Shown piece after piece: positions 3,596-59,550 of a DNA stretch of 63,610 nt (position 1 is its first letter; every line of letters starts with the position of its first letter). The stretch is from positions 1-63,610 of the forward strand of contig JAKSUL010000006.1 of assembly GCA_024409055.1 (NCBI GenBank), in the 5' to 3' direction. The notes beneath the pieces are model-generated. The model ran no database searches, was not told the DNA's origin, and worked only from the letters and a program-made list of their open reading frames with translations. Origin of the DNA: Bacilli bacterium (lineage in GTDB: Bacteria > Bacillota_I > Bacilli_A > RFN20 > CAG-826). The position numbers and the translations under genes are program-made.

Positions 3596-5152
3596 ATGGC
3601 GAATCTTAAGCTGAAAGGGGTAAACAAAGTTTATCCTAATGGTGTTCAGGCCGTTTTCGATTTCAACGTCGATATTAAAGACAAGGAATTTATTGTTTTC
3701 GTCGGCCCTTCTGGATGCGGTAAATCTACGACTCTTAGAATGGTCGCCGGATTAGAAACCATCACTAGCGGGGAATTCTATATCGATGGCCAATTGATGA
3801 ACTCGGTTGAACCTAAAGATAGAAACATCGCCATGGTTTTCCAAAACTACGCCTTGTATCCTCATTTCACCGTTTACGAAAACCTAAGATTTGCTTTGAA
3901 ACTCAGGAAGGTTCCAAGGCCGATTTATACGAATCTTGAAGATCCCGAAATCGTCGCACTTACGAAAGAGAATCAAGAATTGTTTGCGACCGCCAATAAA
4001 TACAACAGGCAGTTCAAGAAGAAACAGTACGACGACAATCTTCTAATCGAAAGAAGAGAGGTCTACAAAAAGATCTTTGAAAACGAGGAAAAGCTCCAGG
4101 GCCTTTACGTTCAAGCCGTCGGCATTGACGAATATTCAATAAACAAAGCCACCAAGCTTATCGCGAAGTTAAAGAAGGACATCGCGCATAACGAAAAGAT
4201 TATTTCTCGCTATGTTGAGGATTATCCGGAAGAAACCAAGAGATTTGTTGAATCGAACGAGAACATCGCGAAACAAATCAAAAACGTCGAAGAAAAACTC
4301 GAATATTTGAAGACTCACGAAGTTCCGCTTAATCAGGTTCGCCACCTCACCAAATATGAGATGGACCTCGAAATCAACAAAGCGGCGGACTCCATCGATC
4401 TTGAAAGATACCTTTACCGCAAACCGGCCGCTCTTTCTGGTGGCCAGAGGCAGCGTGTTGCTTTAGGGCGCGCCATCGTTAGGAAACCAGCCGTTTTCTT
4501 GATGGACGAGCCTCTTTCTAACCTTGACGCTAAGTTAAGAGTCCAAACCAGGTCTGAGATCATCAAGATTCACGAAAGAGTTGGTGCCACGACCATTTAT
4601 GTCACCCACGACCAGACCGAAGCCATGACTATGGCGGATCGCATTGTCGTTATGAAAGACGGTTATATTCAGCAGGTCGGCGCTCCAAAAGAGCTCTTCA
4701 AAGATCCGGCCAATAAATTCGTCGCATCCTTCATTGGAAGTCCGGCTATGAACTTTATCTCCGGAACATATTCGAACGGGGTCTTCAAAGGCGAAATGAA
4801 AGAAGGGCTAGTCGAGGCCGTCGGTAACGAATCGTTTGAGTACGAAGTTCCCTCCGCCTATAAAGCGATGCTCACCCCCTACGAAGGAAAGAAAGTCATT
4901 TTGGGCGTGAGACCAGAAGATATCGAAATTAAAAAGGCTACCGGCAAGAAGAGCGGTGGAACCCTCGTTAATTGCGATTATGTCGAACTTCTTGGATATG
5001 ACTTAATGGTTTATGCCTACATCCTCGGAAATAAGGTAGTCGTTAAATCGGAAGAAAATACTGGCATTGCCATGGGAGATGATGGCTACATCACCTTCAA
5101 AGAAGACGCTGTCTATTTCTTCGATGGCGAAACCGAGCAGAGAATCCGTTAA
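3596..5152 (+). CDS. Sugar ABC transporter ATP-binding protein (MsmX/UgpC/MalK type) with large coiled-coil insertion
   Basis: Walker A GPSGCGKST, Q-loop VFQNYALYPH, signature LSGGQRQR, Walker B FLMDEPLSNLD, H-loop YVTHDQ, FIGSP, C-terminal TOBE-like GVRPED; about 143 aa insert after LRKVP. Confidence 0.92.
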   Translation: MANLKLKGVNKVYPNGVQAVFDFNVDIKDKEFIVFVGPSGCGKSTTLRMVAGLETITSGEFYIDGQLMNSVEPKDRNIAMVFQNYALYPHFTVYENLRFALKLRKVPRPIYTNLEDPEIVALTKENQELFATANKYNRQFKKKQYDDNLLIERREVYKKIFENEEKLQGLYVQAVGIDEYSINKATKLIAKLKKDIAHNEKIISRYVEDYPEETKRFVESNENIAKQIKNVEEKLEYLKTHEVPLNQVRHLTKYEMDLEINKAADSIDLERYLYRKPAALSGGQRQRVALGRAIVRKPAVFLMDEPLSNLDAKLRVQTRSEIIKIHERVGATTIYVTHDQTEAMTMADRIVVMKDGYIQQVGAPKELFKDPANKFVASFIGSPAMNFISGTYSNGVFKGEMKEGLVEAVGNESFEYEVPSAYKAMLTPYEGKKVILGVRPEDIEIKKATGKKSGGTLVNCDYVELLGYDLMVYAYILGNKVVVKSEENTGIAMGDDGYITFKEDAVYFFDGETEQRIR

Positions 5153-5157
5153 AGATT

Positions 5158-6168
5158 ATGGAAAAAGATATAGCGAAGAAAAAGAAACCTCTTTGGCGGA
5201 GAATAAGGAACTTCTTCTACGAGAAAGACCGTAAAGTCTTCGGAAGCAGGCACCTTGCCGCCGGCCCAGTTCTTAGCAAAAGAAGGACTTCACTTTTTAT
5301 CGTGGCCCTCCTTTTCATTCCTATTGCTCACTGGTTGGTCTTCTGGTTATACATCAACATCAATTCAATTTTCTTGGCTTTCCAGGATTTCAGAACCGGG
5401 GAGGCTACGTTTGTAAACTTCCAGTTATTCTGGGAAAAACTTACTAGCCCGGTTGGGAACGAAATCGGCATCGCACTTAGAAACACTCTTATTTATTTCG
5501 GCACAACGGTCCTTGTCACAATGCCGTTATCATTCGTCATCGCTTACTTCCTATATAAGAAGATTCTTGGACACAGGATTTTTAGGATCATTTTCTACTT
5601 ACCTGCCATTATCTCTGGCGTTGCTCTTGTCGCAGCCTTTAAGGAAATGGTGGCCCCGTATGGTTTTATTTCCAAAATATTGGAATTCTTCGGCATGGAG
5701 ATTCCTGAAGGCGGTCTTCTTTATGACAACACTACCGCGACAGGAACGATCGTCGTGTATTGCATATTGACCGGATTCACCACCAATGTCTTGCTTTTCT
5801 CCGGCGCAATGGCCCGCGTTCCTCAGGAAGTTTTGGAATCAGCTAGGTTAGAAGGATGCGGATCCTTTAGGGAATTAGTGGAAATCATCTTCCCGCTTAT
5901 TTGGCCGACTTTTGCCACTCAGTTAATTTTCACGATGACCGGTTTATTCACAGCGTCTGGCCCGATTATGCTTTTCGACAAGATGAACAATTACGAGACC
6001 ATCACCATCTCGTATTGGATTTACCGTGAAATCTACGGAACCGGATTGGGCGGAACCGGAAACTACAACCTCGTTAGCGCCACCGGTTTGGTTTTCACTC
6101 TCATCGGATTCCCGATCATTATGCTTACCAGGTTCTTAACCGATAAGGTTGAGCCGGTCGAATACTAG
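5158..6168 (+). CDS. Carbohydrate ABC transporter permease (MalF/UgpA type)
   Basis: Multiple hydrophobic helices, FRIIFYLPAII, EAA-like loop EVLESARLEGCG. Confidence 0.9.
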   Translation: MEKDIAKKKKPLWRRIRNFFYEKDRKVFGSRHLAAGPVLSKRRTSLFIVALLFIPIAHWLVFWLYININSIFLAFQDFRTGEATFVNFQLFWEKLTSPVGNEIGIALRNTLIYFGTTVLVTMPLSFVIAYFLYKKILGHRIFRIIFYLPAIISGVALVAAFKEMVAPYGFISKILEFFGMEIPEGGLLYDNTTATGTIVVYCILTGFTTNVLLFSGAMARVPQEVLESARLEGCGSFRELVEIIFPLIWPTFATQLIFTMTGLFTASGPIMLFDKMNNYETITISYWIYREIYGTGLGGTGNYNLVSATGLVFTLIGFPIIMLTRFLTDKVEPVEY

Positions 6169-6179
6169 GAGGTCATAAC

Positions 6180-7094
6180 ATGAAAAGAATTCCTAGTGCA
6201 TTAAGAATCAAGACCGATAAGGTCAAGAAATCCTTTGGCGAAAAAGTTATTTTCTCCATCGTCTTCGTTTTGTTTGCCATATACGCTGCCGCGATTCTTT
6301 ATCCTTTGGTGTATCTCGTTTTCGTCTCCATGTTTATGGATGCGGAAAACTATATCTTCATGATTACGGGCATTGCCGATGTATCGCTAGCTCCTCACTT
6401 TGAGAACTATATAAACGCTCTTAACATCTCTGTTCTAGATTCGGTTGGTAACGAAGTATTCATGCCACAGATGTTCTTCAACTCTATATGGTATTGCTTC
6501 TTCTCTATTGCCGGCGGCGTTCTTATGTCCTGCTTTACGGGATACGTGGTCGCAAAATACAAATTTAGAGGCAGGGGGCTTATCTATGCCGTCGCCATTT
6601 TCTGCATGACCATTCCGATCGTCGGTACCGGCGGCGCTGCCTTCAAGTTAATCTTTGATCTTGGCCTATACAACACGCCGATTTATATCATCGTTGCTTC
6701 TTTGGGCGGCTTTGGATTCAACTTCCTAATCATGTATGCCTTCTTCAAGAATGTCTCTTGGAGCTATGTCGAGGCTGTCTTGATCGATGGAGGCGGACAC
6801 TTCACGGCCTTTTTCAAAGTCATGCTTCCGCAGGCCAAACCTTCCTTAATCACATTAGCCATTTTGGCCTTCATTGGATGCTGGAACGATTATTCGACCC
6901 CACTTCTATACTTGCCGGACTATCCGACGGTAGCAAGCGGTGTCTATCAAATTCAAACTGCCGCCGAAAGAAGCGGCGAAACCCCATTGGTATTCGCGGG
7001 ATTGGCCTTGTCCATTATCCCGGTAATCATTCTCTTCGCCATTTGCTCGGAAAGAATCATGAAGAACCTTTCCATCGGCGGATTGAAGGGATAA
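6180..7094 (+). CDS. Carbohydrate ABC transporter permease (MalG/UgpE type)
   Basis: TM helices, KYKFRGR, EAA loop YVEAVLIDGGG, WNDY, C-terminal GGLKG. Confidence 0.92.
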   Translation: MKRIPSALRIKTDKVKKSFGEKVIFSIVFVLFAIYAAAILYPLVYLVFVSMFMDAENYIFMITGIADVSLAPHFENYINALNISVLDSVGNEVFMPQMFFNSIWYCFFSIAGGVLMSCFTGYVVAKYKFRGRGLIYAVAIFCMTIPIVGTGGAAFKLIFDLGLYNTPIYIIVASLGGFGFNFLIMYAFFKNVSWSYVEAVLIDGGGHFTAFFKVMLPQAKPSLITLAILAFIGCWNDYSTPLLYLPDYPTVASGVYQIQTAAERSGETPLVFAGLALSIIPVIILFAICSERIMKNLSIGGLKG

Positions 7095-7133
7095 ATACAA
7101 AACAACAAATTTAATAAGTCAGGAGGATTTGCA

Positions 7134-8732
7134 ATGAAAAACAATCGCTTATTAATCGCTATGACGACTTCCATGCTCTGTGCTACGCTTCTTAGCGCCT
7201 GTGGAGGCAACAAGGTCCGTGACGACGCTCAGTCACTTCAGATTTTCTGCGTCGATGCCGGATATAGAACCCAGTGGGTTTCTGACATCAAAGACCTTTT
7301 CGTCCAAGAGGATTGGGTCAAACAGAAATACCCAAACCTCAACGTCAGGATCGACACCAGCAAAGATCAGACCTACGGAAGAACTCGTATGGACGCAGGA
7401 AGAAGCTCCAACACAATCGACCTTTTCTTCGATATGGGCTTAACCAACTACAACGGAAGCGACGATCTTCTTGATTTGACCGAGACCGTTTATAACTCAT
7501 CGGTTCCAGGCGAAGATACTTTGTTTAAAAACAAAATCGATGCTTCTTATCTTGAAGCCTTCACTTTTGATGGACAAAGCGATCCCGCCAAAAAAGGCCA
7601 CCAATTCTTTGCCCCGTGGGCTGGTGGTATGACCGGCATTCTTTATAACGCCGACATATTCTCTTCCCTCAACTACACCGTTCCGAACACGACTGACGAG
7701 CTCGTCGCCCTTTGCGCCGATTATCAAGGAAGAGGAACGGAAACTTCCCCGAAATACTGTTTCATCCAAGGAAACGACGAAACTTACTTCAATTACCTCT
7801 TCGATATTTTCTGGACCCAATACCAAGCTAGAGAAGGATACCTTGATTTCGTCAACGGAATCGCCGATAACGTCGTCTCCAAAGACATCTTTAAGCAGCA
7901 GGGCAGGATGGAAGCTCTTCTTGTTTATGAATCTTTAGTCAAAAACGAGAAGCACTTCGTCAACCCGAACTCAATCAACCAAGGATTCGCCGTCGCTCAG
8001 GCCATGTTCTTAAAAGGTGAGGCTTTGTTCAACGTCAACGGCGACTGGTTTGTCTCCGAAACCAAAGACATCAAAGGAAAGATCACAAACCCGGCTTCCA
8101 TCAAGATGATGAAGACCCCGATCATTTCCGCTATTAAGAACGTTGTGCCGGATTCTTCCATTGGAGACGATGCCGAGCTTTCGGCTTTGGTTAAGGCCAT
8201 CGATTCTCACGACACTTCCCTTTCTGGAGCCGGATACGAAGTCACCCAAGCCGACTACGATTACGTAAAAGCCGCTAGGGCCATCACTTACTCTATCGGA
8301 GCCGGTCACCACGCCGCCATTCCAAGCTATGCCACAGCTAAGGGTTTGGCCGCTGACTTCATCAGGTATTTAGCCACTGATAAGGCCATCGAAGCTTACA
8401 TCAAAGCCACCGATGGTGCTTCCATGCCTTTCGCTTATGACCTCGAAACCAAGAACCCGGCCTTATTCGCCAAAATCGATCCGATCCACCAGAGCAGGGT
8501 CCAATATTTTGCCGATACGTTCATCGATCCTTATACTCTTCCGAACAAATATATGTTCCCTCTCATCAAATACGGCGGAGTCGATACTTTCAAATTAGCT
8601 AATGGCTATGACTTCTTCGTCCAGATGGGCAAAAAGAACGGAGCCAAGACTCCTCAGCAATATTGGGATGAAACCATTTCGTATTGGACTGACGATAAAT
8701 GGCAGGACGCTTGCGAAAGAGCGGGTATCTAA
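7134..8732 (+). CDS. ABC transporter solute-binding lipoprotein (sugar family 1)
   Basis: Lipobox LSAC; GILYNADIF, FLKGEALFNVNGDW, AADFIRYLATD; follows two permeases; RBS AGGAGG. Confidence 0.85.
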   Translation: MKNNRLLIAMTTSMLCATLLSACGGNKVRDDAQSLQIFCVDAGYRTQWVSDIKDLFVQEDWVKQKYPNLNVRIDTSKDQTYGRTRMDAGRSSNTIDLFFDMGLTNYNGSDDLLDLTETVYNSSVPGEDTLFKNKIDASYLEAFTFDGQSDPAKKGHQFFAPWAGGMTGILYNADIFSSLNYTVPNTTDELVALCADYQGRGTETSPKYCFIQGNDETYFNYLFDIFWTQYQAREGYLDFVNGIADNVVSKDIFKQQGRMEALLVYESLVKNEKHFVNPNSINQGFAVAQAMFLKGEALFNVNGDWFVSETKDIKGKITNPASIKMMKTPIISAIKNVVPDSSIGDDAELSALVKAIDSHDTSLSGAGYEVTQADYDYVKAARAITYSIGAGHHAAIPSYATAKGLAADFIRYLATDKAIEAYIKATDGASMPFAYDLETKNPALFAKIDPIHQSRVQYFADTFIDPYTLPNKYMFPLIKYGGVDTFKLANGYDFFVQMGKKNGAKTPQQYWDETISYWTDDKWQDACERAGI

Positions 8733-8734
8733 TC

Positions 8735-11230
8735 ATGGCCAGCAAGAAAGCGTTATTAAAATTTGGCGCATTCACGGTCACTCTTTTTGCCGCTACTTCT
8801 TGTGGCGCTGCCTCTTCCTCCGAGGTAACTCCTTCTGTTAAAAAAACCGAGGATGCTACTTCCAATAAAGAGATTTGGGGAACTTACGGATCCGAAAAGG
8901 TCGTACAAGATAGAGCCCGCGATTACTACGCTTCCAAAGTTCAAGACGCCAAGATCGATATTTTGACGTGCAAAGGCGAAAGCGAACTTGATCAAATCGT
9001 CATTTCCCCTGTTTCCAAAGTCAATTATTTCAACGCGAGGGTCACTAATCTTATTTCTTCCGATGGTAACGTCATTGGTAAGAACAACATCGAGCTCTTT
9101 GCCGCTAAATACTTAAAAATAGCCAATATCTATGATATTGCCACGAATGAAAGCAAAGGAAACTTCCCGGACGCTTTGATTCCGGTTGAGGCTATCGTTA
9201 GAGAAAAAACCAACTACATCAACGCCGGTTATAACCAAAGCTTTTATGTTAAGGTCACGACTCCTTTGGGACAAAAGCCCGGGGTATATAAAGGCAACCT
9301 TTTCATCCAACTTGATGAAACCGAATATAAGATTGCCGTTACGGTTGACGTCAAAGACTACAAGGTCAACGCCATCACCCACTCCAAGAGCCTTTTCCTC
9401 AACGATTGGCAATTCGATAGCGGCGAAAACGATTCTTCCCAGGACAAATTAGATTCTTATAACGACGCTCTTTTGGACTATAGGCTTTCTCCAGACAAAC
9501 TCATCAGGCAGGAAGACATGTATGGCCACTTCAACAGCGATTTCATTTTCCGTTACACCGAAAAAGCCTATGAGTACATGCAAAACGATAATTGCACCAA
9601 CGTATCCATTCCTTATGAGCCGATTTCAAAAGTTGTTGGAGGAGAGTGGCTCCAGACCATAAACGTCGAGAAATTTAAGGAATTCCTTACCAGCTACTAC
9701 GTTAAATCGATTGCCACGAACTACAACATGTTCGAAAAATCTTCCTTCTACTGCGGCCTCATCGACGAGCCGGATGATAGGCAGATACTGGAACAGACCA
9801 AGCTCGTAGTCGGTGACTTTGAACGTGCTATTTCCGAGGCGGCTGCCGATTTATCCGTTCATGGTTATATAAGCAATCCTCTTCACGAAACTTTGATCGA
9901 AGAAATCAAGAATCTTAAAAACATCGTCACCTGTGCTTATGCTGACGAATATGCTCCCTATATTGAGTGTTGGTGCCCGAAAGCTAACTTCTATAACACA
10001 GAAGAGCAGCGCGCCAATTACGCCAGTCAAAAAGAGAAGTGGTGGTATACGTGTGTTTATCCACGCGCCCCATATCCAACCTATCACATCGAAGACGGTT
10101 TAACTTCCGCCAGAGCTTTATCTTGGATGCAGGCCGAATACGATGTTGTCGGAAACTTATTCTGGGCGACCAACGTATACGCTCGCTATAACGGGACCCA
10201 GTACATCCCGATCGAAGACTATTACCAAGAAGGTTATAGATTTAGCGGTGTCAATGGCGATGGATTCTTGTTCTATCCAGGTGAACCGCTTGGTTACAAT
10301 AAGCCGTTTGGTTCCACGAGGCTTGAATCCATTAAAGACGGTCTCGAGGAATATGAGATTTTCTATAACCTCAAGGAAGTAGCCAAAAATCTCGAGTTAA
10401 AAGATGATGGCATGTTCTCTTTCCTAAACCGCAACTTATATCGTGGAACCAAGGTCATCGGCGGAACTGCCGAAATGGAGGAAAGCCGCAAAGACCTCAT
10501 TGACTTAGCTCTAGCCAATCAAAATGGTTCTTCTTTCCTCATCACCGATTGCGTCTATAACGAGAATCAGGGCCAAGTCGAAATGGAGTTTTACGCCAAT
10601 AACGGAACGAAGATCGATCTTAATGGTGCTCAAATCTCTGAAGGCGCCTCTTATAAGAATGGTCATATTTTCACTGCTATTCAAAAACTCGATAAAGATG
10701 AAAACGTCGCCAATATCTCCGTCTCGTATGGCGGAAAGACCAATACGATAAAACATAACCTTGGCGGCAAGATTTACGCTATATCCGCTAAAGATCTCGT
10801 GAATGGTTTCGCCAAATACGACGCTGAAGTTGCGGCCTCTCTTGTTGAATCCGGCGATGAAGAGCTGGTCAAGATCGACGTCTCCGCCATCAACAACAAG
10901 AGGCAAAGAATTCGTTATACTCCTGACTTTATCAAGAACGTTAACGAAGATACCAAAACGCTCATCATGACATTCAAGAACGAGTCAAGCAAAGACATTC
11001 CTTTGGCTTTGGCCGCTAAGTTTACGAATAAACGTGGTGAGCAATATCTCAGCCAAGGAAATGTTTTGACCGCTAACGGCTATACGACCGTCACGGTTGA
11101 CTTATCAACATTCTCCATGGCCACATCGGGAAACATCGAATATTTGACTTTCACCTTTGGCGAAGATACGGCAGAAGGAAGCAAAGAAGCGGTAACGGCG
11201 TTCCTTAGAAACGTTGTTCTAGCTTATTGA
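8735..11230 (+). CDS. Surface lipoprotein, DUF4091/GH123-like glycoside hydrolase with C-terminal beta-sandwich
   Basis: Start reassigned to ATG 8735 (MASKKALL..ATSC lipobox); motifs FPDALIP, IDEP, WWYTC, NGDGFLFYPG, STRLESIKDGLEEYE. Confidence 0.75.
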   Translation: MASKKALLKFGAFTVTLFAATSCGAASSSEVTPSVKKTEDATSNKEIWGTYGSEKVVQDRARDYYASKVQDAKIDILTCKGESELDQIVISPVSKVNYFNARVTNLISSDGNVIGKNNIELFAAKYLKIANIYDIATNESKGNFPDALIPVEAIVREKTNYINAGYNQSFYVKVTTPLGQKPGVYKGNLFIQLDETEYKIAVTVDVKDYKVNAITHSKSLFLNDWQFDSGENDSSQDKLDSYNDALLDYRLSPDKLIRQEDMYGHFNSDFIFRYTEKAYEYMQNDNCTNVSIPYEPISKVVGGEWLQTINVEKFKEFLTSYYVKSIATNYNMFEKSSFYCGLIDEPDDRQILEQTKLVVGDFERAISEAAADLSVHGYISNPLHETLIEEIKNLKNIVTCAYADEYAPYIECWCPKANFYNTEEQRANYASQKEKWWYTCVYPRAPYPTYHIEDGLTSARALSWMQAEYDVVGNLFWATNVYARYNGTQYIPIEDYYQEGYRFSGVNGDGFLFYPGEPLGYNKPFGSTRLESIKDGLEEYEIFYNLKEVAKNLELKDDGMFSFLNRNLYRGTKVIGGTAEMEESRKDLIDLALANQNGSSFLITDCVYNENQGQVEMEFYANNGTKIDLNGAQISEGASYKNGHIFTAIQKLDKDENVANISVSYGGKTNTIKHNLGGKIYAISAKDLVNGFAKYDAEVAASLVESGDEELVKIDVSAINNKRQRIRYTPDFIKNVNEDTKTLIMTFKNESSKDIPLALAAKFTNKRGEQYLSQGNVLTANGYTTVTVDLSTFSMATSGNIEYLTFTFGEDTAEGSKEAVTAFLRNVVLAY

Positions 11231-11244
11231 GGAGGAATCTAGTT

Positions 11245-12495
11245 ATGAAATTCAGCAAGTTCTTAATGATGGGATTCCTTCCCTTGTTCGCTTTGACCGG
11301 ATGCAACAACACTCCGTCCGAAAACAAAGACGAGACGATGTTCCTTAGTTTTGAGGAGGGCTATAACGACCTTAATAGCGCGGTCCTTATCAATTATTTT
11401 GGAAAGGCTTCTTTGAATACCGTTCCTGAATTCGTCAAAGAGGGAAAATGCAGCGCTTTGCTTCAACCAACCGGTGTTTATGGCGTTAATAGAAAGCCTT
11501 TGATTTATTTCCCCCTTTCCTCAAACCTATATAACTTCAACAAAGGAGACATCACCAAATACGATTCCGTTTCCTTTGCTATCTATAACGCCAGCGACAG
11601 GAAAATAGAAGGGGCTACCGGATTTGTTTCCGATGTCGTTTCCGTTTATAAGGTTGGAACGACCAAGATAGGTGAGATGACTTTGTTGCCGCGTCAATGG
11701 AATGAGTTCACTTTCACCATCGATCACGCTTATTGCAACCTCTTCTTCAACATCCAAGAAGCTCCGGGCTTGTATTTCGAGTTCGAGAACATGAATGTTA
11801 AGGACCCCTCTTTCGCCCCATCTCTTTATTTGGACGCCGTTTCTTTCAAAAACGCCGCTACCCCTCATGTCATCCATGATGACTTCGTTCTTGAAGAAAA
11901 TGAGATCTGCGATTTTGAGAAGGATTTCCAGCAATATTTCCTCGCCTGCAACAATTACTTCGAAGACGCTTTGAAGTTCAAAATCACCGATGACGTTGAT
12001 GGAATTAAGGCCTCTCACGGCAAAAAATTCCTTTGCATCGATGTAAAGGCCGGGTCTGTTGCGTGGGCCGATTGGTCTTCCACTTTCCTTACCGAAAGAT
12101 ATATGTCGAGAACCAAGATTGCTTCTTTGGATCTCGAGGAAGAAGCTTCCCAGTATCGTTTCGAATACGATATAAGGTTCGTCGGAACTCCAAACTCCGA
12201 TAACAACCGCGTCGTCACGAGGTTCATGACTAGGGGTGAGACGAAATCGACCTTAGTCGTTCCTTGCATCGATGAGAGCAAGCCTTTGGACCAAGAAAAC
12301 ATTGTCGCCCCGGAAAATGAGTGGTGCACGATGGGCTTTACCTTCTGCAAGAACTACACGTTCGCCGGTCAAAACTACTGTTTGGACACCAACTTCACCG
12401 GAGTTAATACCGGCAAGATGGAATTCTCCATTGGTGACCTCGAATATGACTACAAGATTCTTATCGACAACATCAAATTGGTGAAAATAGCGTAA
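11245..12495 (+). CDS. Lipoprotein with two putative carbohydrate-binding (jelly-roll) domains
   Basis: Start ATG 11245 after RBS GAGGAGG; lipobox LTGC; halves begin LSFEE / CDFEK and end LYLDAVSF / ILIDNIKL, a typical CBM-like pattern. Confidence 0.65.
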   Translation: MKFSKFLMMGFLPLFALTGCNNTPSENKDETMFLSFEEGYNDLNSAVLINYFGKASLNTVPEFVKEGKCSALLQPTGVYGVNRKPLIYFPLSSNLYNFNKGDITKYDSVSFAIYNASDRKIEGATGFVSDVVSVYKVGTTKIGEMTLLPRQWNEFTFTIDHAYCNLFFNIQEAPGLYFEFENMNVKDPSFAPSLYLDAVSFKNAATPHVIHDDFVLEENEICDFEKDFQQYFLACNNYFEDALKFKITDDVDGIKASHGKKFLCIDVKAGSVAWADWSSTFLTERYMSRTKIASLDLEEEASQYRFEYDIRFVGTPNSDNNRVVTRFMTRGETKSTLVVPCIDESKPLDQENIVAPENEWCTMGFTFCKNYTFAGQNYCLDTNFTGVNTGKMEFSIGDLEYDYKILIDNIKLVKIA

Positions 12496-12499
12496 CGGT

Positions 12500-15910: not shown

Positions 15911-15928
15911 TAGAAAGGAAATAACACA

Positions 15929-18382: not shown

Positions 18383-18387
18383 TTTAT

Positions 18388-26151: not shown

Positions 26152-26168
26152 CTCGGCAGGAGATAACT

Positions 26169-27227: not shown

Positions 27228-27230
27228 AAT

Positions 27231-28854: not shown

Positions 28855-29060
28855 GGCTTTTTACCGCGAACTAAACTATAGAACATCTAAAAATGTATTT
28901 GTTGTCATTTTCTACTAATTGCATATATAAGAGCACTCATGTTTTCTAATCAAATGAATTGCCTCTTATGAGTGTTAGAATAAACCAAACATCATTTTAT
29001 GTTTGAACTTCGCGTCAAAACTAAAATTCGCGAAACAAAACATTTGTGAGAGGTGGATCT

Positions 29061-39340: not shown

Positions 39341-39344
39341 GAAA

Positions 39345-44346: not shown

Positions 44347-44348
44347 TT

Positions 44349-45272: not shown

Positions 45273-45282
45273 GAGAACCCAT

Positions 45283-48381: not shown

Positions 48382-48393
48382 GGAGGATTGAAT

Positions 48394-50346: not shown

Positions 50347-50359
50347 GGAGAGAAATATC

Positions 50360-52291
50360 ATGAAAAAGAAATCATTAGCTATTATCTCTCTTCTCCCTTT
50401 CCTCGCTGGATGCGGTGGAGCCGGTGGGATCATCGATCCTATTCCGTATTCCGATCCAGGACCGGAAACCAAAACCGATCTTGTGTTCTTGGGTTTTTCG
50501 GATTCGAAACAATATTCTCCGTCTGACGAAATCACGTTCCAAGTGAGTGTTGATAACACCACGATCGTTACATACGACGTCGTTTCAAAAACTTTCGTTA
50601 GCGGAACTAAGGCCGGCACAACAACCGCCCACTTCGTTTCTCCGAAATTAAGCGTTGAGGTCACCGTTACCGTTCAAGATGACGGAACTGCACCGTTATT
50701 TACTTTGGATGAGTCGGCGATCAGCCTCGATTTAGGCAACACATACGCGGTTAACGCCTCCTTATCTTTTAGAGGCGTCGATAGCTTCTCTTTATCAAGC
50801 GGGCTTAGCTACCGCAGGGTTGGAGAAGATGAAGAAAACACCACAATCTCCGTTGAGGGAAAAACTATCACCATACAGGCCAACACCGTCGGGAGCGATA
50901 CATACACCATCTTCACCGAATATGCCGGCTTGATTCTTTCAAAGAACTTGACCGTCACCGTCTTAGATAACCAAGCTTTCGTCGTAATAGGCGAAAGATT
51001 GGGATTTGACGATGATGGAGCGGTATATGACGTTTCGATGTATCAATACGATTCCAACAGGATCAACCTCAGGAAAGATCTCTCGGTTTCAAAGGGCTCC
51101 AATATCGTTTCTTATAGTGACTTATCGATCACCTTGGATAGCGAAGACGTTGTCTCCCTTGTTGGAGATGAGCTAGTTGTTCATAAATCCGGACTTGCCA
51201 ATTTGACGGTTCGTTATGGCGAAGAAAGCAAGAACATCAAAGTCAATGTCTTTAAACCCATCATCGAGCACAAACCGATGAGCATCGCCGACGAAAGATT
51301 TGCTTTAAACCTTAGTTTAGAGGTGTCCGGATCCACCCGCAAATACACCGGAAGCACAAGCGTCACAAAAACCTTTGCGATTGAAAAAGGCTCACACGTC
51401 TTTAGCGGAGCCGATAGTGTTTCGGTTGGCGGAAAGATTGTTAAGAACACAGTCGATACCCCAATCACCTATAGTGGTGGTCAGGTTACTTTAACGGCCG
51501 CTTCGTTCGATATCGGATGTGCTGGAGAAAAAGAGGTCGCCTTGGTCATGGAAGCCAACGATTATCTTGTCGAATACACGTTCGATATGTTCTTCATCAC
51601 GAAAGAGCTTTCTACAAAATCCGATTGCGACACCTATCTAACCATGCGTACGGCCTCTGATGCCATCTATGGCTATTACGCCTTGGCCAGTGACGTCGAT
51701 TATTTCAACTACGCTCCGGCACAAGATTATATTTCTGGAGCCGCTAATAGCTATCTCGGTTTCAGGGGCACTCTTGACGGAAGAAAACCCGACGGCAGTG
51801 GTAACTTCAAAATCAAGAATTTGAAGGCCAGCATCTACGGCATCTGTATCACTATCGGTGATGGCGGAACGTTTAAGAACATCGACTTCGACAACGTTGT
51901 CTTGAATAACGCCAAAAAGACCTCGTTGTTAGCCTCCTTCGTCTTCGGAGGAAACTTCTCCAACATCAACGTCAATATCAGCGATGATTCTGATGTAAGC
52001 AGCCACGGACCGGATAACGATCCATGCGCCAGCGGCATTTTATCCTGCCAGAAGATCCAAGATTCTTATTTCGAAGACTTCACGATCAATGCCCAGAAAC
52101 ACGTTATCAAGTCGCTTGTTGGAAAAACCGCTTCTAACAACACCTTCTCTAACACCGTCATCAACTGCATCGATATCTATTATTACTGCACCGGAACTCA
52201 GTATGATTCTTCGACCTTGGAACCGACTGGCGGTATTCTCTTCTCGAAGCAAAACATTCCGGGAATCACCATCAATAGAGCTGCGAAATAG
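50360..52291 (+). CDS. Lipoprotein with Ig-like domains and one GYYxL..FxGxxDG repeat domain
   Basis: Start reassigned to ATG 50360 (RBS AAGGAG); lipobox LAGC; GYYALASDV..FRGTLDGR; ends GITINR like the 32616 repeats. Confidence 0.78.
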   Translation: MKKKSLAIISLLPFLAGCGGAGGIIDPIPYSDPGPETKTDLVFLGFSDSKQYSPSDEITFQVSVDNTTIVTYDVVSKTFVSGTKAGTTTAHFVSPKLSVEVTVTVQDDGTAPLFTLDESAISLDLGNTYAVNASLSFRGVDSFSLSSGLSYRRVGEDEENTTISVEGKTITIQANTVGSDTYTIFTEYAGLILSKNLTVTVLDNQAFVVIGERLGFDDDGAVYDVSMYQYDSNRINLRKDLSVSKGSNIVSYSDLSITLDSEDVVSLVGDELVVHKSGLANLTVRYGEESKNIKVNVFKPIIEHKPMSIADERFALNLSLEVSGSTRKYTGSTSVTKTFAIEKGSHVFSGADSVSVGGKIVKNTVDTPITYSGGQVTLTAASFDIGCAGEKEVALVMEANDYLVEYTFDMFFITKELSTKSDCDTYLTMRTASDAIYGYYALASDVDYFNYAPAQDYISGAANSYLGFRGTLDGRKPDGSGNFKIKNLKASIYGICITIGDGGTFKNIDFDNVVLNNAKKTSLLASFVFGGNFSNINVNISDDSDVSSHGPDNDPCASGILSCQKIQDSYFEDFTINAQKHVIKSLVGKTASNNTFSNTVINCIDIYYYCTGTQYDSSTLEPTGGILFSKQNIPGITINRAAK

Positions 52292-52293
52292 TT

Positions 52294-53964: not shown

Positions 53965-53966
53965 CG

Positions 53967-56216
53967 ATGATAAAAGTTGAAAACGGTTATTTCAAAATCG
54001 ACACCCCAAATACGACCTATTTATTTAAGGTTAATCCTTTGGGAATACTTGAACACATCTATTACGGAAAAAAGATCCCATCTTCAAAAGATTATTCCTT
54101 TATTGAAGAACAAGCCAAATATGGTGGTGGAACATTAACCGGCGACAACGAATACGCCATATACGAAGATTGCGCTTCTTTGGAGGCCTCTTCTAGTAAA
54201 AGAGGTGACAGCAGAGAAACGTTCCTCAATCTTTCTTTCGATTCGAATGACCGCGAATTTGTTCTTAAATACAAAGCCTATCGCATTTCTAATGGCGTTA
54301 ACCTTGATACGCTTCCCTCTAGTCACGACAAAGCCCAAACCTTGTCCGTTATTTTAGAAGATGAGAATCGCGGCATTGAAGTTACGTTAAATTATTCTGT
54401 TTTCGAGGATACCGACGTCATCGTTAGAAATTCATCAATTAAAAACGTCGGCAAATCACTAATAAAAATCGAAAGGATCATGTCTTCTTCTTTCGATATG
54501 ATCGACGGCGATTTCACTTTGGTCACCTTAAATGGTGCGTGGGCTAAGGAAAGACAAATCAACGAAGCTCCATTAGCGATGGGCATAACAAAAGTGTCTT
54601 CTAACTACGGCTTTAGCAGTGCCCAGACAAACCCATTCACGATTCTTAAAAAGAAAGAGACAACCTTTGTTGGCGGGGAAGCCTATGGCTTCAATCTGCT
54701 TTATTCCGGCAACCACATGACGACTTATGAAAGAACCATGTACCATAAGGTCAGAGTCATGGCCGGAATTAATGATTACTCATTCTCTTGGACTCTTAAT
54801 CCAAACGCGGTCTTCGAAGCCCCAGAGGCTACTCTTTGCTACTCTTATCAAGGCATAAATAAGTTGAGCCACGAGTATCATCAATTTGTTAGAAACCACA
54901 TCATCAGAAGTGAATTCAAGGACAAAGAAAAGCCGATCCTTATCAATAACTGGGAAGGCACCTATTTCAATTTCACCGAAGAGTCTTTGCTTGGAATTGC
55001 TAAAAAAGCCAAAGAAGTCGGCATTGAGATGCTTGTCTTGGATGATGGATGGTTTGGGAAAAGAAACAGCGATTCAACGTCACTAGGAGACTGGTATCCA
55101 AACCTCGAAAAACTTCCAGAAGGAATCAAGGGCTTAAGCGAGAAGGTTCATTCTCTTGGATTGAAATTCGGATTATGGTTTGAGCCGGAAATGATCTCCC
55201 CAGATAGCGATTTGTATCGTAGCCATCCGGAATGGGCGATTAAACACAAGTCATACGTGCCCCTTCTTTCAAGAAACCAATTGGTTCTAGATTTAACGAA
55301 TGAAGAGGTTGTCAAATACATCGGAGACGTTGTGTCTTCTTTGATTAAGGATGCGAAACTCGACTACGTTAAGTGGGACTGCAATAGAAATATAGGCGAC
55401 TACTATAACGAGAACCTCGATAACCAGGAAGAATTCCTCCATAGATATATGCTTGGCTTCTACAAGCTGGTTAAACACGTGACCGAAGAGTGCCCGAATG
55501 TTTTGTTTGAGAGCTGCTCCGCTGGTGGCAATAGGGCCGACTTAGGCTTGCTTTGCTACATGCCCCAATTCTGGTGCAGCGATAACAGCGACCAAGTTTC
55601 AAGAATGATGATTCAAGAGGGGACACTACTTTGCTACCCCCAGTGCTGCATCGGAGCCCATGTGTCTTCATCCTTGTCTCACCAAACCTTGCGCACCGCA
55701 ACATACGACAACAAGTTCAATGTCGCCTGCATCGGAGCGTTTGGATACGAACTCGATTTGACCAAACTCAACGAAAGAGAACTTCAAGCGATCAAAGATC
55801 AAATCACATGGTTTAAGAAGCACAGGAAGCTTCTTCAGCTTGGCGATTTCTATCAGATCAAATCCTTCTATACCGATAACACCCAGGAATTTGTAATAGT
55901 TTCCTCCGATAAGAGCGAGGCTATGTACTTTGTAGGCAATAAGGTTTTCATGCCATATGCTTGCCCGACTATCATCAAGCCGATTGAACTAAATAACGAA
56001 TACGTATATGAAGTTTCTTCAAGGGCCCAATATCAAAATGCCCTTCTTGGAAAAGGCGAAATGTGCGAAAGTAGCGAATGGACCATTTTGGGTGAGACAT
56101 TCATGAACGCCGGTATAAGACTTCCTTATGAATGGCTCAGCGGAAACGGACCGGAAAAGCGAATTATGGAAGACTTCGGCTCACGCCTTTATTACATTGA
56201 AAAGAAAGAAGCCTAA
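53967..56216 (+). CDS. GH36 alpha-galactosidase
   Basis: NNWEGTYFNF, VLDDGWFGKR, FGLWFEPEMIS, YVKWDCNR, FESCSAGGNR, WCSDNSD, FGYELDL. Confidence 0.93.
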   Translation: MIKVENGYFKIDTPNTTYLFKVNPLGILEHIYYGKKIPSSKDYSFIEEQAKYGGGTLTGDNEYAIYEDCASLEASSSKRGDSRETFLNLSFDSNDREFVLKYKAYRISNGVNLDTLPSSHDKAQTLSVILEDENRGIEVTLNYSVFEDTDVIVRNSSIKNVGKSLIKIERIMSSSFDMIDGDFTLVTLNGAWAKERQINEAPLAMGITKVSSNYGFSSAQTNPFTILKKKETTFVGGEAYGFNLLYSGNHMTTYERTMYHKVRVMAGINDYSFSWTLNPNAVFEAPEATLCYSYQGINKLSHEYHQFVRNHIIRSEFKDKEKPILINNWEGTYFNFTEESLLGIAKKAKEVGIEMLVLDDGWFGKRNSDSTSLGDWYPNLEKLPEGIKGLSEKVHSLGLKFGLWFEPEMISPDSDLYRSHPEWAIKHKSYVPLLSRNQLVLDLTNEEVVKYIGDVVSSLIKDAKLDYVKWDCNRNIGDYYNENLDNQEEFLHRYMLGFYKLVKHVTEECPNVLFESCSAGGNRADLGLLCYMPQFWCSDNSDQVSRMMIQEGTLLCYPQCCIGAHVSSSLSHQTLRTATYDNKFNVACIGAFGYELDLTKLNERELQAIKDQITWFKKHRKLLQLGDFYQIKSFYTDNTQEFVIVSSDKSEAMYFVGNKVFMPYACPTIIKPIELNNEYVYEVSSRAQYQNALLGKGEMCESSEWTILGETFMNAGIRLPYEWLSGNGPEKRIMEDFGSRLYYIEKKEA

Positions 56217-56977
56217 TGCCGAACGTTACTTTCAAAAACGTTACAATCTTCTATGGAAAAAGAAGAAATAGACAAGACGTTGTAGAAGATTTAAACGTCT
56301 CTTTTAAAAGCGGCAAAACAAATGTCCTCTTGGGCGCTTCTGGAAGTGGCAAGACCACTATCCTTAAATCGCTTGTTGAGATGGTTGATTACGATGGAGA
56401 CATATTTTTCGATGATGTCGACATCAAAAACATCGTCATAAACAAAAGAAACATCAGCTATTCTTCGCAAAACATCAATCTCTACCCTCATATGACGATA
56501 TTTGAAAATATCGCCTTTCCTTTGAAGATAAGAAAATATCCTAGAGACGAGATATTAAAAAGAACTAGGGCTATGGCCGAAAAGCTTGGGATCGCTGTTT
56601 GCCTAAATCAACGCGGCAGATATCTTTCCATCGGACAGCAGCAAAGGGCAATGATAGCGAGGGAGTTGGTTTACGATCCAAAGATTTTATTGATGGATGA
56701 GCCTTTTTCTTCGCTCGACCCCACCCTAAGAAAAGAAATGTGCAAATTAGTGAAGTCACTTCAAAAAGAACTAGGCGTCACCGTTATTTATGTAACTCAC
56801 TCTTATGACGAAGCGATAAATTTGGCTGACGAGCTTTTCATTCTCGAAGAGGGGAAAGTGGTCGCTAGTGGAACTCCGAAAAAACTTATCGCCGACAACA
56901 ATGAATATCTCGAGATGATGTATAAGAGCGAATATATCTCGGCAGGTGAAATCCATGAGAAAGAGAAAGACGATTAG
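56216..56977 (+). CDS. Short ABC transporter ATP-binding protein (no TOBE domain; LSIGQ signature)
   Basis: Walker A GASGSGKT, Walker B LLMDEPFSSLD, H-loop YVTHS; paralog of 12500. Confidence 0.88.
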   Translation: MPNVTFKNVTIFYGKRRNRQDVVEDLNVSFKSGKTNVLLGASGSGKTTILKSLVEMVDYDGDIFFDDVDIKNIVINKRNISYSSQNINLYPHMTIFENIAFPLKIRKYPRDEILKRTRAMAEKLGIAVCLNQRGRYLSIGQQQRAMIARELVYDPKILLMDEPFSSLDPTLRKEMCKLVKSLQKELGVTVIYVTHSYDEAINLADELFILEEGKVVASGTPKKLIADNNEYLEMMYKSEYISAGEIHEKEKDD

Positions 56978-57848
56978 TTCTCCGAAAGATTTTACTGTCG
57001 CCGAACTCCCGCAGACGAGGAAGGATCAGTTTTTTAACATCTTCAAAAACCAGTACATGACCCTTTTAAAATCTGGTTTTATCCTACTTCTATTTTTCCT
57101 TCCGATTTTAGTTTTAGATATTTTTAGAAATTTATTCGACGCTGGATTTTATTCTCAGTTTGTCGATGGCGCTTTGACTGAAAACGAATATAACTTTTCG
57201 ATATTTGTCGATTTCATGATTCAGAGTGGGGCCGAATTCCTTTTGCTGCCGCTTTTGGCCGTTCCTCTTTCCGGACTAAACAACGTCTTCAAAACGATGG
57301 TGGAAGGCGATTGCGTGCTATTTGGCCCCGACTTCAAAGAAGGAGTTAAGGGAAGTTACAAAATTACCTTAGTCATCCTTCTTGTTTTTGGAATCTTCTT
57401 CCTTTTGCTTAGGTTCCTCGTCAATTACTTTATCGGCGTGTATTTCATCGTCATCCCTGTCTACTCGTTCTTCATCCTTTTCATAATACCCCTCACCATT
57501 ATCTGCCTTCTTTTCTCAACATATTATCAAGGCAACTATTTCAATGTTTTGAGCAACTCAACGAAGCTATATTCGCCGTATTGGTGGAAGTATCTTCTTG
57601 CTTCGGTGCTTCTCTTCGGATTTGTCTTTGGAGTGAATTTTGGCTTTGATGGAAATATGCTCCCGTATTTCAAAACCATTCTTTTGGGTGCCGTCATAAT
57701 ATTCGTTTTGCCTATCGGGATGCTTTTGCTTCACTCAATATCGATTTCTTTGTTCGACAAATACATCAATGGTGAGTTCTATCCTGATAACCAATACAAA
57801 GGTTTGTATAACCCGAAAATTCAAAAAAAGGAAAAAGATATCAAATAA
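56955..57848 (+). CDS. Multi-pass membrane protein, YesL/DUF624-like
   Basis: Start ATG 56955; about 6 TM helices; shares DF..LPQTR..QF, DFK.GVK and C-terminal GLY motif with the 13246 protein. Confidence 0.65.
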   Translation: MRKRKTISSPKDFTVAELPQTRKDQFFNIFKNQYMTLLKSGFILLLFFLPILVLDIFRNLFDAGFYSQFVDGALTENEYNFSIFVDFMIQSGAEFLLLPLLAVPLSGLNNVFKTMVEGDCVLFGPDFKEGVKGSYKITLVILLVFGIFFLLLRFLVNYFIGVYFIVIPVYSFFILFIIPLTIICLLFSTYYQGNYFNVLSNSTKLYSPYWWKYLLASVLLFGFVFGVNFGFDGNMLPYFKTILLGAVIIFVLPIGMLLLHSISISLFDKYINGEFYPDNQYKGLYNPKIQKKEKDIK

Positions 57849-57889
57849 TACTTATGCGAGGGAACTTATCTATAAGTTAAAACCGATAA

Positions 57890-57898
57890 TGCTATAAT
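57890..57898 (+). promoter_or_regulatory. Extended -10 promoter element for the second long ATPase
   Basis: TGCTATAAT matches TGnTATAAT exactly, 23 nt upstream of ATG 57922, followed by a GGAG RBS. Confidence 0.55.
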
Positions 57899-57921
57899 CG
57901 AAAGGATTTTGGAGAAACAAT

Positions 57922-59550
57922 ATGGCAACGCTTAAATTTAATAATATCCAGAAAATTTACCCCAACCACGTTCAGGCTGTTTTCGATTTCAATTTGGAGA
58001 TCAAAGACAAGGAATTTATCGTCTTCGTCGGCCCGTCCGGATGTGGTAAATCAACCACCCTCAGAATGATTGCTGGATTAGAAGATATCTCCGACGGCGA
58101 GCTTTTCATCGACAACCGTTTGGTCAATTTCGTCGATCCAAAAGAAAGAAATATCGCGATGGTTTTCCAAAGCTATGCCTTGTACCCGCATATGACCGTC
58201 TACGATAACATCGGTTTCTCTTTGAAAATCCGCAAGATGGATAGAAAAGTTTTTGAAGAAAACGAAGAAAGAGCGACTCTAGAAAAAGAAATCACCGTCT
58301 TAAGAAAACAGATGATGAGCGTCATCAAAAAAGGCGGAAGAAACCACAAGAAGAGGGAAGAGTGCCAGAAAGAAGCCGAGAGGCTTAGAGCGGAGGTCAA
58401 AGAAAAGATCGCCAAGTGGCATGAACTCGAGACCGTCAAAGTCGGAAAATCGACCTTGTTGATCGAAAGAAACGCCAAATTGATTAAAACCTCCACCAAA
58501 GAGATCCAAGAACTCAAAAAGAAGATTGCTTCTGGCGAAAAAGAAATCGTTTCTTTGGAAGAAAAGATCAACGCCGCGAAAGCCGAACAACCAGTTTCCG
58601 AGAAGAAGGTCAACAAACTCGCTGGCGATTTAGACATGGATAACCATGTTTTGAACTCTTTGCGCATCGAACTAAACAGCAAGGAAAACGAGCTAGAACA
58701 AGCCAAGAAGGATTTTGAGTATTATTCAAACAACGATGTCGAACTTATCAAGTATCGCCATCTCACCAAAAACGAAATATTCGACGAGGTTTTGCATGCT
58801 GCTGAGATTTTGGATTTGTTCAAATATCTCGCCCGCAAACCAGCCGCCCTTTCCGGTGGCCAGCGTCAGCGTGTTGCTTTAGGACGTGCCATCGTCAGAA
58901 AACCAAAAGTCTTCTTGATGGACGAACCTCTTTCCAACTTGGACGCCAAACTCAGAACCCAGACAAGGACCGAGATCGCCCAAATTCATAAAGAAGTTGG
59001 AGCGACGACCGTTTACGTTACCCACGACCAAGTCGAGGCTTTGACCTTGGCCGATAGGATCGTCATTATGAAGGATGGTGTCGTCCAGCAAGTTTGCACT
59101 CCGAAAGAAGCTTATGAACAACCGGCCAATATGTTCGTCGCCGGCTTTATCGGCTCCCCATCCACTAATTTCTTAACCGGCGTCTTTGACGGAAAAGCCG
59201 TTAACGTCCCTTATAAAGACGGAAGCATCGCCGTCAAGCTCAACAAGGACATGGTGGCCGAATTGAAGGATTACAAAGACAAGGAAGTCGTTGTTGGTAT
59301 TAGACCCGAATTCATGCATTTGAAGTCTGAATACAAAGATGATGGAGAAGTCGCCACCGTCAAATTGGCCTTCAAAGATAGCGAATTGGTCGGACACGAA
59401 TCCATCGTTTATTTCGACGTCAACGGTAGCCGTTTATCGGCGAAAGCCTCTTCTGATGCCGAGATAGAAGCCGGAAAAGATTACGAGTTCGTCATCGAAC
59501 TTAAGAAAATCCACGTTTTCGACAAAGAAACCACAAAGACTATTATCTAA
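57922..59550 (+). CDS. Sugar ABC transporter ATP-binding protein (MsmX/UgpC/MalK type) with large coiled-coil insertion
   Basis: GPSGCGKST, VFQSYALYPH, LSGGQRQR, FLMDEPLSNLD, YVTHDQ, GIRPE; about 173 aa insert. Confidence 0.92.
   Translation: MATLKFNNIQKIYPNHVQAVFDFNLEIKDKEFIVFVGPSGCGKSTTLRMIAGLEDISDGELFIDNRLVNFVDPKERNIAMVFQSYALYPHMTVYDNIGFSLKIRKMDRKVFEENEERATLEKEITVLRKQMMSVIKKGGRNHKKREECQKEAERLRAEVKEKIAKWHELETVKVGKSTLLIERNAKLIKTSTKEIQELKKKIASGEKEIVSLEEKINAAKAEQPVSEKKVNKLAGDLDMDNHVLNSLRIELNSKENELEQAKKDFEYYSNNDVELIKYRHLTKNEIFDEVLHAAEILDLFKYLARKPAALSGGQRQRVALGRAIVRKPKVFLMDEPLSNLDAKLRTQTRTEIAQIHKEVGATTVYVTHDQVEALTLADRIVIMKDGVVQQVCTPKEAYEQPANMFVAGFIGSPSTNFLTGVFDGKAVNVPYKDGSIAVKLNKDMVAELKDYKDKEVVVGIRPEFMHLKSEYKDDGEVATVKLAFKDSELVGHESIVYFDVNGSRLSAKASSDAEIEAGKDYEFVIELKKIHVFDKETTKTII

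Follow-up and report, generated by a model that had tools for sequence, protein, structure and literature searches.

Short ATPase–membrane protein pairs as candidate second ABC systems in the glycan-utilization loci of a gut member of the Bacilli

Two transporter modules in a glycan-utilization island

The window analysed here is the whole of contig JAKSUL010000006.1 (63,610 nucleotides (nt); assembly GCA_024409055.1), which we refer to as C56 and which belongs to a 1.78-Mb assembly of 87 contigs that is 97% complete. It carries a glycan-utilization island with two ATP-binding cassette (ABC) transporter modules, spanning positions 3596–15910 and 41735–59550. Each module encodes, beside the parts of a CUT1-type sugar importer, a second and short ABC ATPase together with a six-helix membrane protein that we name MEM. 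It is this short ATPase–MEM pair, and whether it belongs to the importer or may be a transport system of its own, that concerns us here.

Scanning the 42 open reading frames (ORFs) of the window with Pfam and NCBIfam identified in both modules the components by which CUT1 importers (TC 3.A.1.1) are recognized, namely a sugar-type binding protein, a pair of BPD_transp_1 permeases and a MalK-type ATPase that carries an OB domain (Table 1). An initial sequence-only reading of this DNA had listed for each module a solute-binding protein, two permeases, a long and a short ATPase, a YesL/DUF624-like membrane protein, and enzyme-like and Ig-like lipoproteins. The ORF list and the family scans bear out this inventory. 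They also bear out its count of 11 lipobox proteins in the window, all clear cases to which one doubtful candidate at 35498 can be added, and its placing of AraC genes near both ends of the island. The same reading had called the modules twins, and they do hold the same parts, but they are not mutual nearest paralogues. The counterparts share 45% identity (long ATPases), 43% (short ATPases) and 29% (MEMs), the binding proteins barely align (E 2e-4), and closer copies lie on other contigs of the genome, C15 and C67 for module 1 and C45 and C5 for module 2. Paralogues of the module 2 binding protein adjoin permeases on C45, C5 and C34. Between the lipoprotein of 662 amino acids (aa) and the glycoside hydrolase family 36 (GH36) enzyme, module 2 also encodes a 556-aa protein without a family match.

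The source organism is a gut member of the Bacilli and is probably wall-less, because neither the PBP transpeptidase family (PF00905) nor FtsW/RodA (PF01098) was matched anywhere in the genome at this level of completeness; the same searches were positive in 10 of 14 control genomes. The many lipoproteins are consistent with a wall-less state. Genome-wide we counted about 16 permease pairs, 15 MalK-family ATPases and eight short ATPase–MEM pairs, the latter situated on C56 (two), C10, C34, C45, C15, C5 and C9.

Table 1. Regulators at the island edges and genes of the two transporter modules
Feature	Position in window	Strand	Evidence
AraC-family regulator, left island edge	2559..3449	-	HTH_18 E 2.6e-19, Cupin_2
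Module 1 MalK/UgpC-type ATPase, 518 aa	3596..5152	+	ABC_tran in two stretches, OB_MalK; UgpC model 445.7 bits, cut-off 432
Module 1 permease A	5158..6168	+	BPD_transp_1 E 4.7e-11; six hydrophobic segments
Module 1 permease B	6180..7094	+	BPD_transp_1 E 3.2e-20
Module 1 solute-binding lipoprotein	7134..8732	+	SBP_bac_1 E 6.6e-12; lipobox LLSAC
GH123-like surface lipoprotein	8699..11230	+	GH123_cat E 2.3e-12, GH123 N-domain; lipobox
Lipoprotein, 422 aa, possible glycan binder	11227..12495	+	Lipobox; weak SGBP_B_XBD match, E 0.0018
Module 1 short ABC ATPase, 249 aa; nucleotide-binding domain (NBD) alone, no regulatory domain	12500..13249	+	ABC_tran E 3.3e-33
Module 1 MEM, six helices, DUF624 superfamily	13246..14166	+	DUF624 E 0.02
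Big_2 (Ig-like) lipoprotein	14156..15910	+	Big_2 E 8.9e-14; lipobox
Module 2 solute-binding lipoprotein, divergent	41735..43420	+	NgcE-type binding-protein model E 1e-11; no Pfam match
Module 2 permease pair (43420–44346 and 44349–45272)	43420..45272	+	BPD_transp_1 E 1.4e-15 and 2e-15
Lipoprotein, 1032 aa, weak Ig-like matches	45283..48381	+	Lipobox; Big_13 E 0.0013
DUF4838 lipoprotein, enzyme-like	48388..50346	+	DUF4838 E 1.3e-32; lipobox
Lipoprotein, 662 aa, true start probably internal (MKKKS)	50303..52291	+	Lipobox FLAGC; weak M26_N match
GH36 alpha-galactosidase family enzyme, no signal peptide	53967..56216	+	Melibiase E 6.9e-140
Module 2 short ABC ATPase, 253 aa	56216..56977	+	ABC_tran E 1.7e-27; in the clade of 18 MEM-adjacent short ATPases
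Module 2 MEM, 297 aa from ATG 56955	56955..57848	+	AlphaFold2 (AF2) predicted local distance difference test (pLDDT) 95; six long helices
Module 2 MalK/UgpC-type ATPase, 542 aa	57922..59550	+	ABC_tran over residues 22–337, OB_MalK; UgpC model 447.8 bits
AraC-family regulator, right island edge	62568..63353	+	HTH_18, AraC_binding

The short ATPase and MEM form a unit

All eight MEM genes of the genome are paired with a short ATPase gene, five of them directly adjacent and three with two small membrane-protein genes in between. In the window the reading frames of the pair overlap, by an ATGA at 13246–13249 in module 1 and by 23 nt (56955–56977) in module 2. The linkage extends to relatives. Among 40 related genomes MEM is present in 13 of 24 from the same genus and in three of 16 from other families of the order, and in these relatives MEM has an ABC ATPase as its neighbour at 25 of 28 loci, with one locus lacking it and two cut by contig ends. 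A class-wide sample of 399 genomes yielded 31 with a match, and an adjacent ATPase in 21 of 22 full-length loci, the last being unclear. One protein among the 150 relatives listed, P0169 (509 aa), is a natural fusion of the NBD with MEM.

Other MEM relatives carry additions of a different kind. P0073 (598 aa) ends in a BD-FAE-type esterase domain, and we read this C-terminal esterase end as cytoplasmic; P0069 (414 aa) has a weak cupin-like tail. The two small genes that can separate the short ATPase from MEM encode smallA (~160 aa, two hydrophobic segments and an 80-aa tail) and smallB (~200 aa, one segment and a 165-aa domain). They occur in three of the eight loci of this genome and in many relatives (L001:14843-15316 and 15306-15911; L003:7078-8135; L005:14564-15638) and are absent from the copies in the window. 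Neither has a Pfam match or a name in the Atlas of ESM.

By its motifs the short ATPase appears catalytically competent, since all eight copies retain Walker A, Q, Walker B D-E and H without change. We considered the degenerate signature (LSIGQ, LSYGQ) as a mark of an inactive site and dropped this idea, all other catalytic motifs being intact; such variants occur in active ATPases, LivG for example. The best NCBIfam matches of the module 1 short ATPase are importer NBDs (WtpC, GlcV and PotA), all below their own cut-offs. In a quick tree, 18 short ATPases (seven from this genome and 11 from relatives) form a clade (SH-aLRT 99) next to the MalK clade, the latter placement with weak support (81), and the C9 copy joins via a long branch. 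End branches in this tree measure 0.36–1.39 in the short ATPases versus 0.10–0.22 within the MalK clade.

Structure prediction of the module 2 short ATPase together with MEM gave a score of 0.72 (median of three runs) versus 0.00 for the best of three controls. Among solved complexes 116 of 157 attain this mark, and among mismatched pairs two of 215; the counts are rough, own alignments having been used. At least 97% of the contacts are common to the three runs, and the pLDDT of the partner is at least 80. The predicted interface brings together ATPase residues 86–142, which begin just past the Q-loop glutamine and run through the helical subdomain, and MEM residues 9–38 and 121–132, which are, respectively, the N-terminal segment conserved in the family and the loop with the DUF624 signature. 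The invariant or near-invariant MEM residues L21, P22, R25, F29, D129, G133 and K135 lie in or beside it. Because of gene adjacency, the natural fusion and the complex prediction we treat the short ATPase and MEM as a unit, and it is very likely that the two proteins form a complex; the coupling of short ATPase to membrane protein that had been proposed at the outset is upheld by these same three lines.

MEM is a divergent member of the DUF624/YesL superfamily

The eight MEM paralogues all retain an N-terminal L-P-x-T-R-R-x-Q-F segment, a loop of the form G-x-x-R ... D-F-x-x-G-x-K-x-N and a C-terminal D-x-x-I-N ... K-G-L-Y tail. They stay below the threshold of the Pfam model for DUF624 (PF04854; best 15.5 bits, cut-off 24.2), and one of the eight matches it at E ≤ 1; PF04854 is carried by two of 45 MEM relatives. 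When a profile of 105 MEM sequences was aligned with a set of seven ordinary DUF624 proteins, six of which match PF04854, the two were found to be related (hhalign 98.4%, E 8.4e-15, 171 columns) in an alignment that takes in the D-F-x-x-G/S-x-K-x-N motif. The comparison makes MEM a diverged relative of DUF624/YesL with an extension at its N-terminus, and the earlier description of it as YesL/DUF624-like holds.

Both kinds of protein live in sugar-utilization loci. MEM differs in its length (275–325 aa versus 205–240 aa), in two N-terminal additions, a cytoplasmic segment and a further first helix, and in having an ATPase gene of its own, whereas an ATPase lay within 1.5 kb of the ordinary DUF624 gene in none of seven loci. 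These seven ordinary genes came up as weak and short matches in the class-wide sample, and four of them have CUT1 permeases directly beside them. We found no functional study of DUF624/YesL proteins in the literature searched, most subscription journals lying outside it. Published accounts place such genes beside sugar genes in the yesU neighbourhood of B. subtilis (PMC6120924), in the bfr cluster of B. adolescentis (bioRxiv 10.1101/2022.03.08.483560) and in a sucrose-linked cluster of B. breve (PMC6045613); the last two list the gene among those that lie with, or are induced together with, fructan and sucrose clusters, and leave it uncharacterised.

An exhaustive search of public data with the MEM profile recovered 1,306 representative clusters (50% identity) at E ≤ 0.001, including 518 at ≤ 1e-30. 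The few relatives with a name are listed as hypothetical proteins from metagenome-assembled genomes of Bacilli or Tenericutes, and the matches in the ESM Atlas fall into 'hypothetical protein' clusters alone, one of which has PF04854 on 21% of its members. The AF2 model of the module 2 protein consists of six long helices with short connecting loops and no outside domain. A Foldseek comparison of MEM with the PDB returned no match at E ≤ 0.001, and a PDB sequence search with its profile nothing below E 0.3.

Gene neighbourhoods point to a possible role in sugar uptake

We inspected the company in which MEM is found. In 10 genomes a LacI regulator and a PfkB sugar kinase are followed by MEM and a MalK-type ATPase of 620–696 aa that has no insert. 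Seven of these loci were examined, and upstream of all seven lie a GH32 lipoprotein and a cytoplasmic GH32 enzyme; six have no permease in the stretch read, and in the seventh a separate GH43 gene and a CUT1 set with its own ATPase follow. A fructan locus that encodes an intracellular fructosidase along with a fructokinase must also have an importer, and MEM with its ATPase would be the sole candidate encoded there. The MalK-type ATPases of these fructan loci bear a C-terminal extension of 260–330 aa, without a Pfam match, after the OB/TOBE region that ends near residue 360 (L056:10418-12490; L058:7581-9482, L059:676-2538 and L092:7386-9476, these three on the minus strand).

Further MEM copies lie in a GH28/uronate-catabolism operon (UxaC, altronate dehydratase), in an operon next to a GH2 beta-galactosidase with PfkB and LacI, and in loci with GH20, GH78, GH16/GH30 and GH130 enzymes. 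In the present genome the neighbours of the pair include GH2, GH20, GH123, DUF4838, GH36 and GDE_C-like enzymes. From this context, in which we include the esterase fused to P0073, we infer that the pair may be a locus-specific uptake unit.

The pair and the long-ATPase insert occur independently of each other

The sequence-only reading had explained the extra parts of both modules as one larger conserved machine, a Gram-positive utilisome that would include the long ATPase and the permeases. Gene neighbourhoods in this genome and in relatives show the pair occurring independently of both. The pair INDEPENDENCE from the CUT1 importer: five of the eight pairs here are without a MalK-type long ATPase in the locus, the C9 pair lies beside a GH2 enzyme on a 29-kb contig without a permease, and the C45 pair is a separate transcription unit, convergent to the permease operon. 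Across 15 loci from 15 further genomes of the class, a permease pair was present within ~9.5 kb in five and not in 10. A Pfam scan of 82 ORFs (≥ 200 aa) from the 10 permease-less loci found no BPD_transp_1 domain; two of these loci (L104 and L105) may have permeases just outside the stretch, to judge by the similar loci L057 and L061. Nearer to the source organism, a permease pair lies within 10 kb in 12 of 20 MEM loci of nine close relatives.

Sequence divergence tells the same components apart. Over the seven CUT1 loci of the genome, the distances of permease A, permease B and the binding protein correlate with one another (r 0.74–0.88, p ≤ 0.008), and those of the short ATPase and MEM with the permease and binding-protein distances do not do so significantly (r 0.10–0.27).

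The long ATPases of the modules carry an insert in the helical subdomain, between the Q-loop and the signature motif, of ~145 aa in module 1 (residues ~105–250) and ~175 aa in module 2; the module 1 protein has its C-terminal OB domain besides. Five paralogues (both window copies, C10, C11 and C6) have a Q-loop-to-signature spacing of 178–239 residues (198 in module 1, 228 in module 2), corresponding to inserts of 125–186 residues. The spacing is the canonical 53 in C75, C2 and C67, and C4 is canonical by its Walker A-to-signature spacing; the possibility that every MalK paralogue of the genome has the insert was ruled out on these grounds. Where a long coiled-coil ATPase had been anticipated from the letters, an insert is indeed present, but AF2 predicts for module 1 a four-helix bundle (117–142, 148–170, 179–206 and 211–240; pLDDT 85–94), clamped by two short strands, and not a simple coiled coil. 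Only 11 relatives of the insert are recognisable, all of them MalK-type proteins of 510–554 aa, which suggests that the insert evolves fast. A PDB sequence search with the insert gave nothing below E 0.3, and no functional study of MalK inserts came to light in the same literature. Mapped onto the short ATPase, the insertion point falls at about residue 110, which is among the predicted contacts with the membrane partner, and the insert would therefore emerge beside the coupling groove.

The insert is not tied to MEM: it occurs without MEM in the C11 and C6 loci, and MEM occurs without a long ATPase in C34, C15, C5 and C45a. The one-machine explanation thus fails the test that the sequence-only reading had set for it, namely whether the pair is found apart from long ATPase and permeases in relatives. 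What survives of it is that the extra parts are conserved and not accidental.

Two ABC systems in one locus and the alternatives

We propose, with a probability of roughly 0.55, that each of these glycan-utilization loci encodes two separate ABC systems, and that the second represents a new ABC architecture for sugar uptake beside CUT1. System 1 would be an ordinary CUT1 oligosaccharide importer, made up of binding lipoprotein, two permeases and MalK-type ATPase, that works beside surface lipoprotein glycosidases and binders and whose ATPase bears, beside the groove that contacts the permeases, a four-helix insert specific to this lineage. System 2 would be self-contained, consisting of MEM and the short NBD that groups beside the MalK-type ATPases. 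The N-terminal cytoplasmic segment of MEM and its conserved loop (D-F-x-x-G-x-K) are predicted to sit in the Q-loop/helical-subdomain groove of the ATPase, the site at which ABC transporters couple to their membrane domains, and system 2 would import a small sugar product alongside system 1. What was computed is the set of parts with their homology and linkage, and a predicted interface; that system 2 transports, and in what direction, with which substrate and stoichiometry, we infer.

Several observations weigh against this proposal. No binding protein is assignable to system 2, and a check for RNA sequencing runs that contain this stretch came back empty. For seven of the eight pairs of the genome a CUT1 permease pair is no more than 12 kb away, which makes coupling to the importer possible, and four CUT1 loci with a pair have no long ATPase of their own, so that the short ATPase might serve the permeases. 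The ATPase–MEM fusion is a single case among the 150 relatives, and a search for longer MEM fusions found none, which is weak evidence by itself. The distances of short ATPase and MEM are uncorrelated with each other (r 0.09), because the paralogues are almost equidistant. Finally, the predicted interface takes in ATPase residues 128–142 including the signature motif and would thereby clash with NBD dimerisation, since a functional dimer needs this motif turned towards the other ATPase; the 1:1 model may therefore have produced some of the interface artificially.

The proximity of pair and permeases, mostly in the same transcription direction, is also what would be seen if permeases, both ATPases, MEM and lipoproteins made up one enlarged importer with MEM and the short ATPase as extra CUT1 subunits. 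Such a utilisome would likewise accord with the permease pair found within 10 kb in 10 of the 18 ATPase-coupled MEM loci of close relatives, with the ordinary DUF624 genes that directly adjoin CUT1 permeases, and with a helical insert emerging beside the membrane-domain contact groove. We consider it unlikely all the same, in view of the 10 of 15 loci in which the pair has no permeases nearby, the pairs that lack a long ATPase, the convergent C45 unit, a pair divergence uncoupled from that of the CUT1 core, and inserts in loci that have no pair.

The complex might instead transport nothing and act as a sensor or regulator, of sugar availability or of ATPase activity, that informs AraC or LacI. 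LacI or AraC genes do lie near many copies, the outside loops of MEM are all short, the pair lacks an assigned binding protein, and CTL1 and PNS1, which are among the nearest solved folds, may not be transporters (PMC13160678). Against this role stand the fructan, uronate and galactoside operons, which hold no other transporter gene, and the full retention of the catalytic motifs. MalK-type ATPases regulate through their C-terminal domain, moreover, and the short ATPase has none; a sensing role thus seems to us to have a low probability.

It is improbable, too, that the short ATPase is simply the engine of CUT1 permeases wherever a long ATPase is missing, with MEM anchoring or modulating it. 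The loci with permeases and a pair and no long ATPase (C15, C34, C45a and C5), the presence of only two orphan MalK-type ATPases in the genome (C75 and C2) and the weakly supported grouping of short ATPases beside the MalK type would fit such a role. In Firmicutes, however, one orphan MsmX-type ATPase serving many CUT1 systems is the known rule; both window modules and C10 have both types of ATPase, the pair is found where permeases are absent, and the short ATPases have diverged far more quickly than the long ones. A system for export or membrane maintenance, whether for sugar efflux or for lipid and lipoprotein handling, merely travelling with the glycan loci, would suit the lipoprotein-rich surroundings and an NBD-then-membrane-domain gene order and single fusion that recall half-transporters, most of which export, but it is highly improbable given that the closest NCBIfam models are importer NBDs, that the neighbours are catabolic enzymes, sugar kinases and repressors and not biosynthetic genes, and that MEM has diversified locus by locus as a substrate-specific part would.

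The two-system proposal can be extended, tentatively and with the odds against the extension. DUF624-superfamily proteins would in that case be the membrane domains of an unrecognised ABC class with a CysZ/CTL-like six-helix fold, coupling to MalK-type ATPases via the signature loop and importing sugars without a permease pair, and the ordinary YesL-type proteins of Bacillus and Bifidobacterium might do the same with a shared MsmX-type ATPase. DUF624/YesL proteins are found in many Firmicute and bifidobacterial sugar operons, with no assigned function that we could find, and to these the present lineage adds a dedicated ATPase with an overlapping gene, one natural fusion, and operons that encode no transporter candidate other than the pair. 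Confirmation would give the ABC superfamily an additional membrane-domain type and reveal a way of taking up sugars that is missing from current gut-microbiome glycan models.

Other features of the island

Apart from the modules, the window encodes a GH125 enzyme, a trehalase/GH63-like enzyme and two GH109-type enzymes (65–2555, 18376–19614 and 60258–61487), which together with GH123 and GH36 point to host-type glycans (GalNAc, mannose) as probable targets. Two tandem GxDLY/SGNH esterases and a polysaccharide deacetylase at 25078–27932 suggest that acetylated glycans are among the substrates of the island. A lipoprotein at 29046–30326, inside the glycan island, combines a Y_phosphatase3 (tyrosine-phosphatase-like) domain with a Gly/Asp-rich N-terminal repeat, and a 496-aa ADP-ribosylglycohydrolase-family protein, an unusual companion for glycosidases, lies at 37850–39340 between lipoprotein and GH2 genes.

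Eight large lipoproteins share a His/Cys-rich stretch (H-x-H-x-Y, then C-x-x-C) right behind the lipobox cysteine. Two are in the window (15929–18382 and 32616–35375), one is at C45:21541-23295 and the others are on C29, C35, C63, C69 and C18; one of the eight has a weak RYYR-CCHC match. The stretch may be a metal-binding module.

Comparison with known transport systems

With CUT1 importers both modules share the full set of parts, and the UgpC model scores over its cut-off in both. According to a 2026 review (PMC13543919), all characterised glycoside ABC transporters need a binding protein, and a CUT1 importer consists of two membrane proteins and two NBD copies. The insert in the ATPase, the second ATPase and a membrane protein that is not a permease go beyond this description.

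There is an analogy with the energy-coupling factor (ECF, type III) importers, which also dispense with a classical binding protein, in which a larger membrane protein that couples to the ATPase is joined by small ones, and whose modules are scattered through sugar loci. MEM, smallA and smallB have no Pfam match to EcfT or to an S component. No ECF chain is among the best 50 fold matches of MEM, a result that does not rule one out. System 2 has one ATPase gene per unit, and smallA and smallB have two and one hydrophobic segments, respectively, as against the six helices of an ECF S component. Type VII ABC proteins (MacB/FtsEX) have four membrane helices and a large outside domain, where the MEM model has six helices and none outside. 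The nearest solved folds, CysZ, CTL1 and PNS1, have no sequence similarity to MEM (8–10% identity), and the fold scores of such matches can come from helix packing alone; none of the three is known to work with an ABC ATPase.

The utilisomes of Bacteroidota resemble these loci in that surface lipoprotein enzymes and binders are encoded with a transporter in one locus. They differ in that the 42 ORFs of the window contain no match to the SusC or SusD family. By the features tested, system 2 is not ECF, MacB/FtsEX or SusCD. What these loci present is a DUF624-type membrane protein coupled to a dedicated ABC ATPase, a coupling that, on the genomic evidence, is widespread and so far unrecognised.

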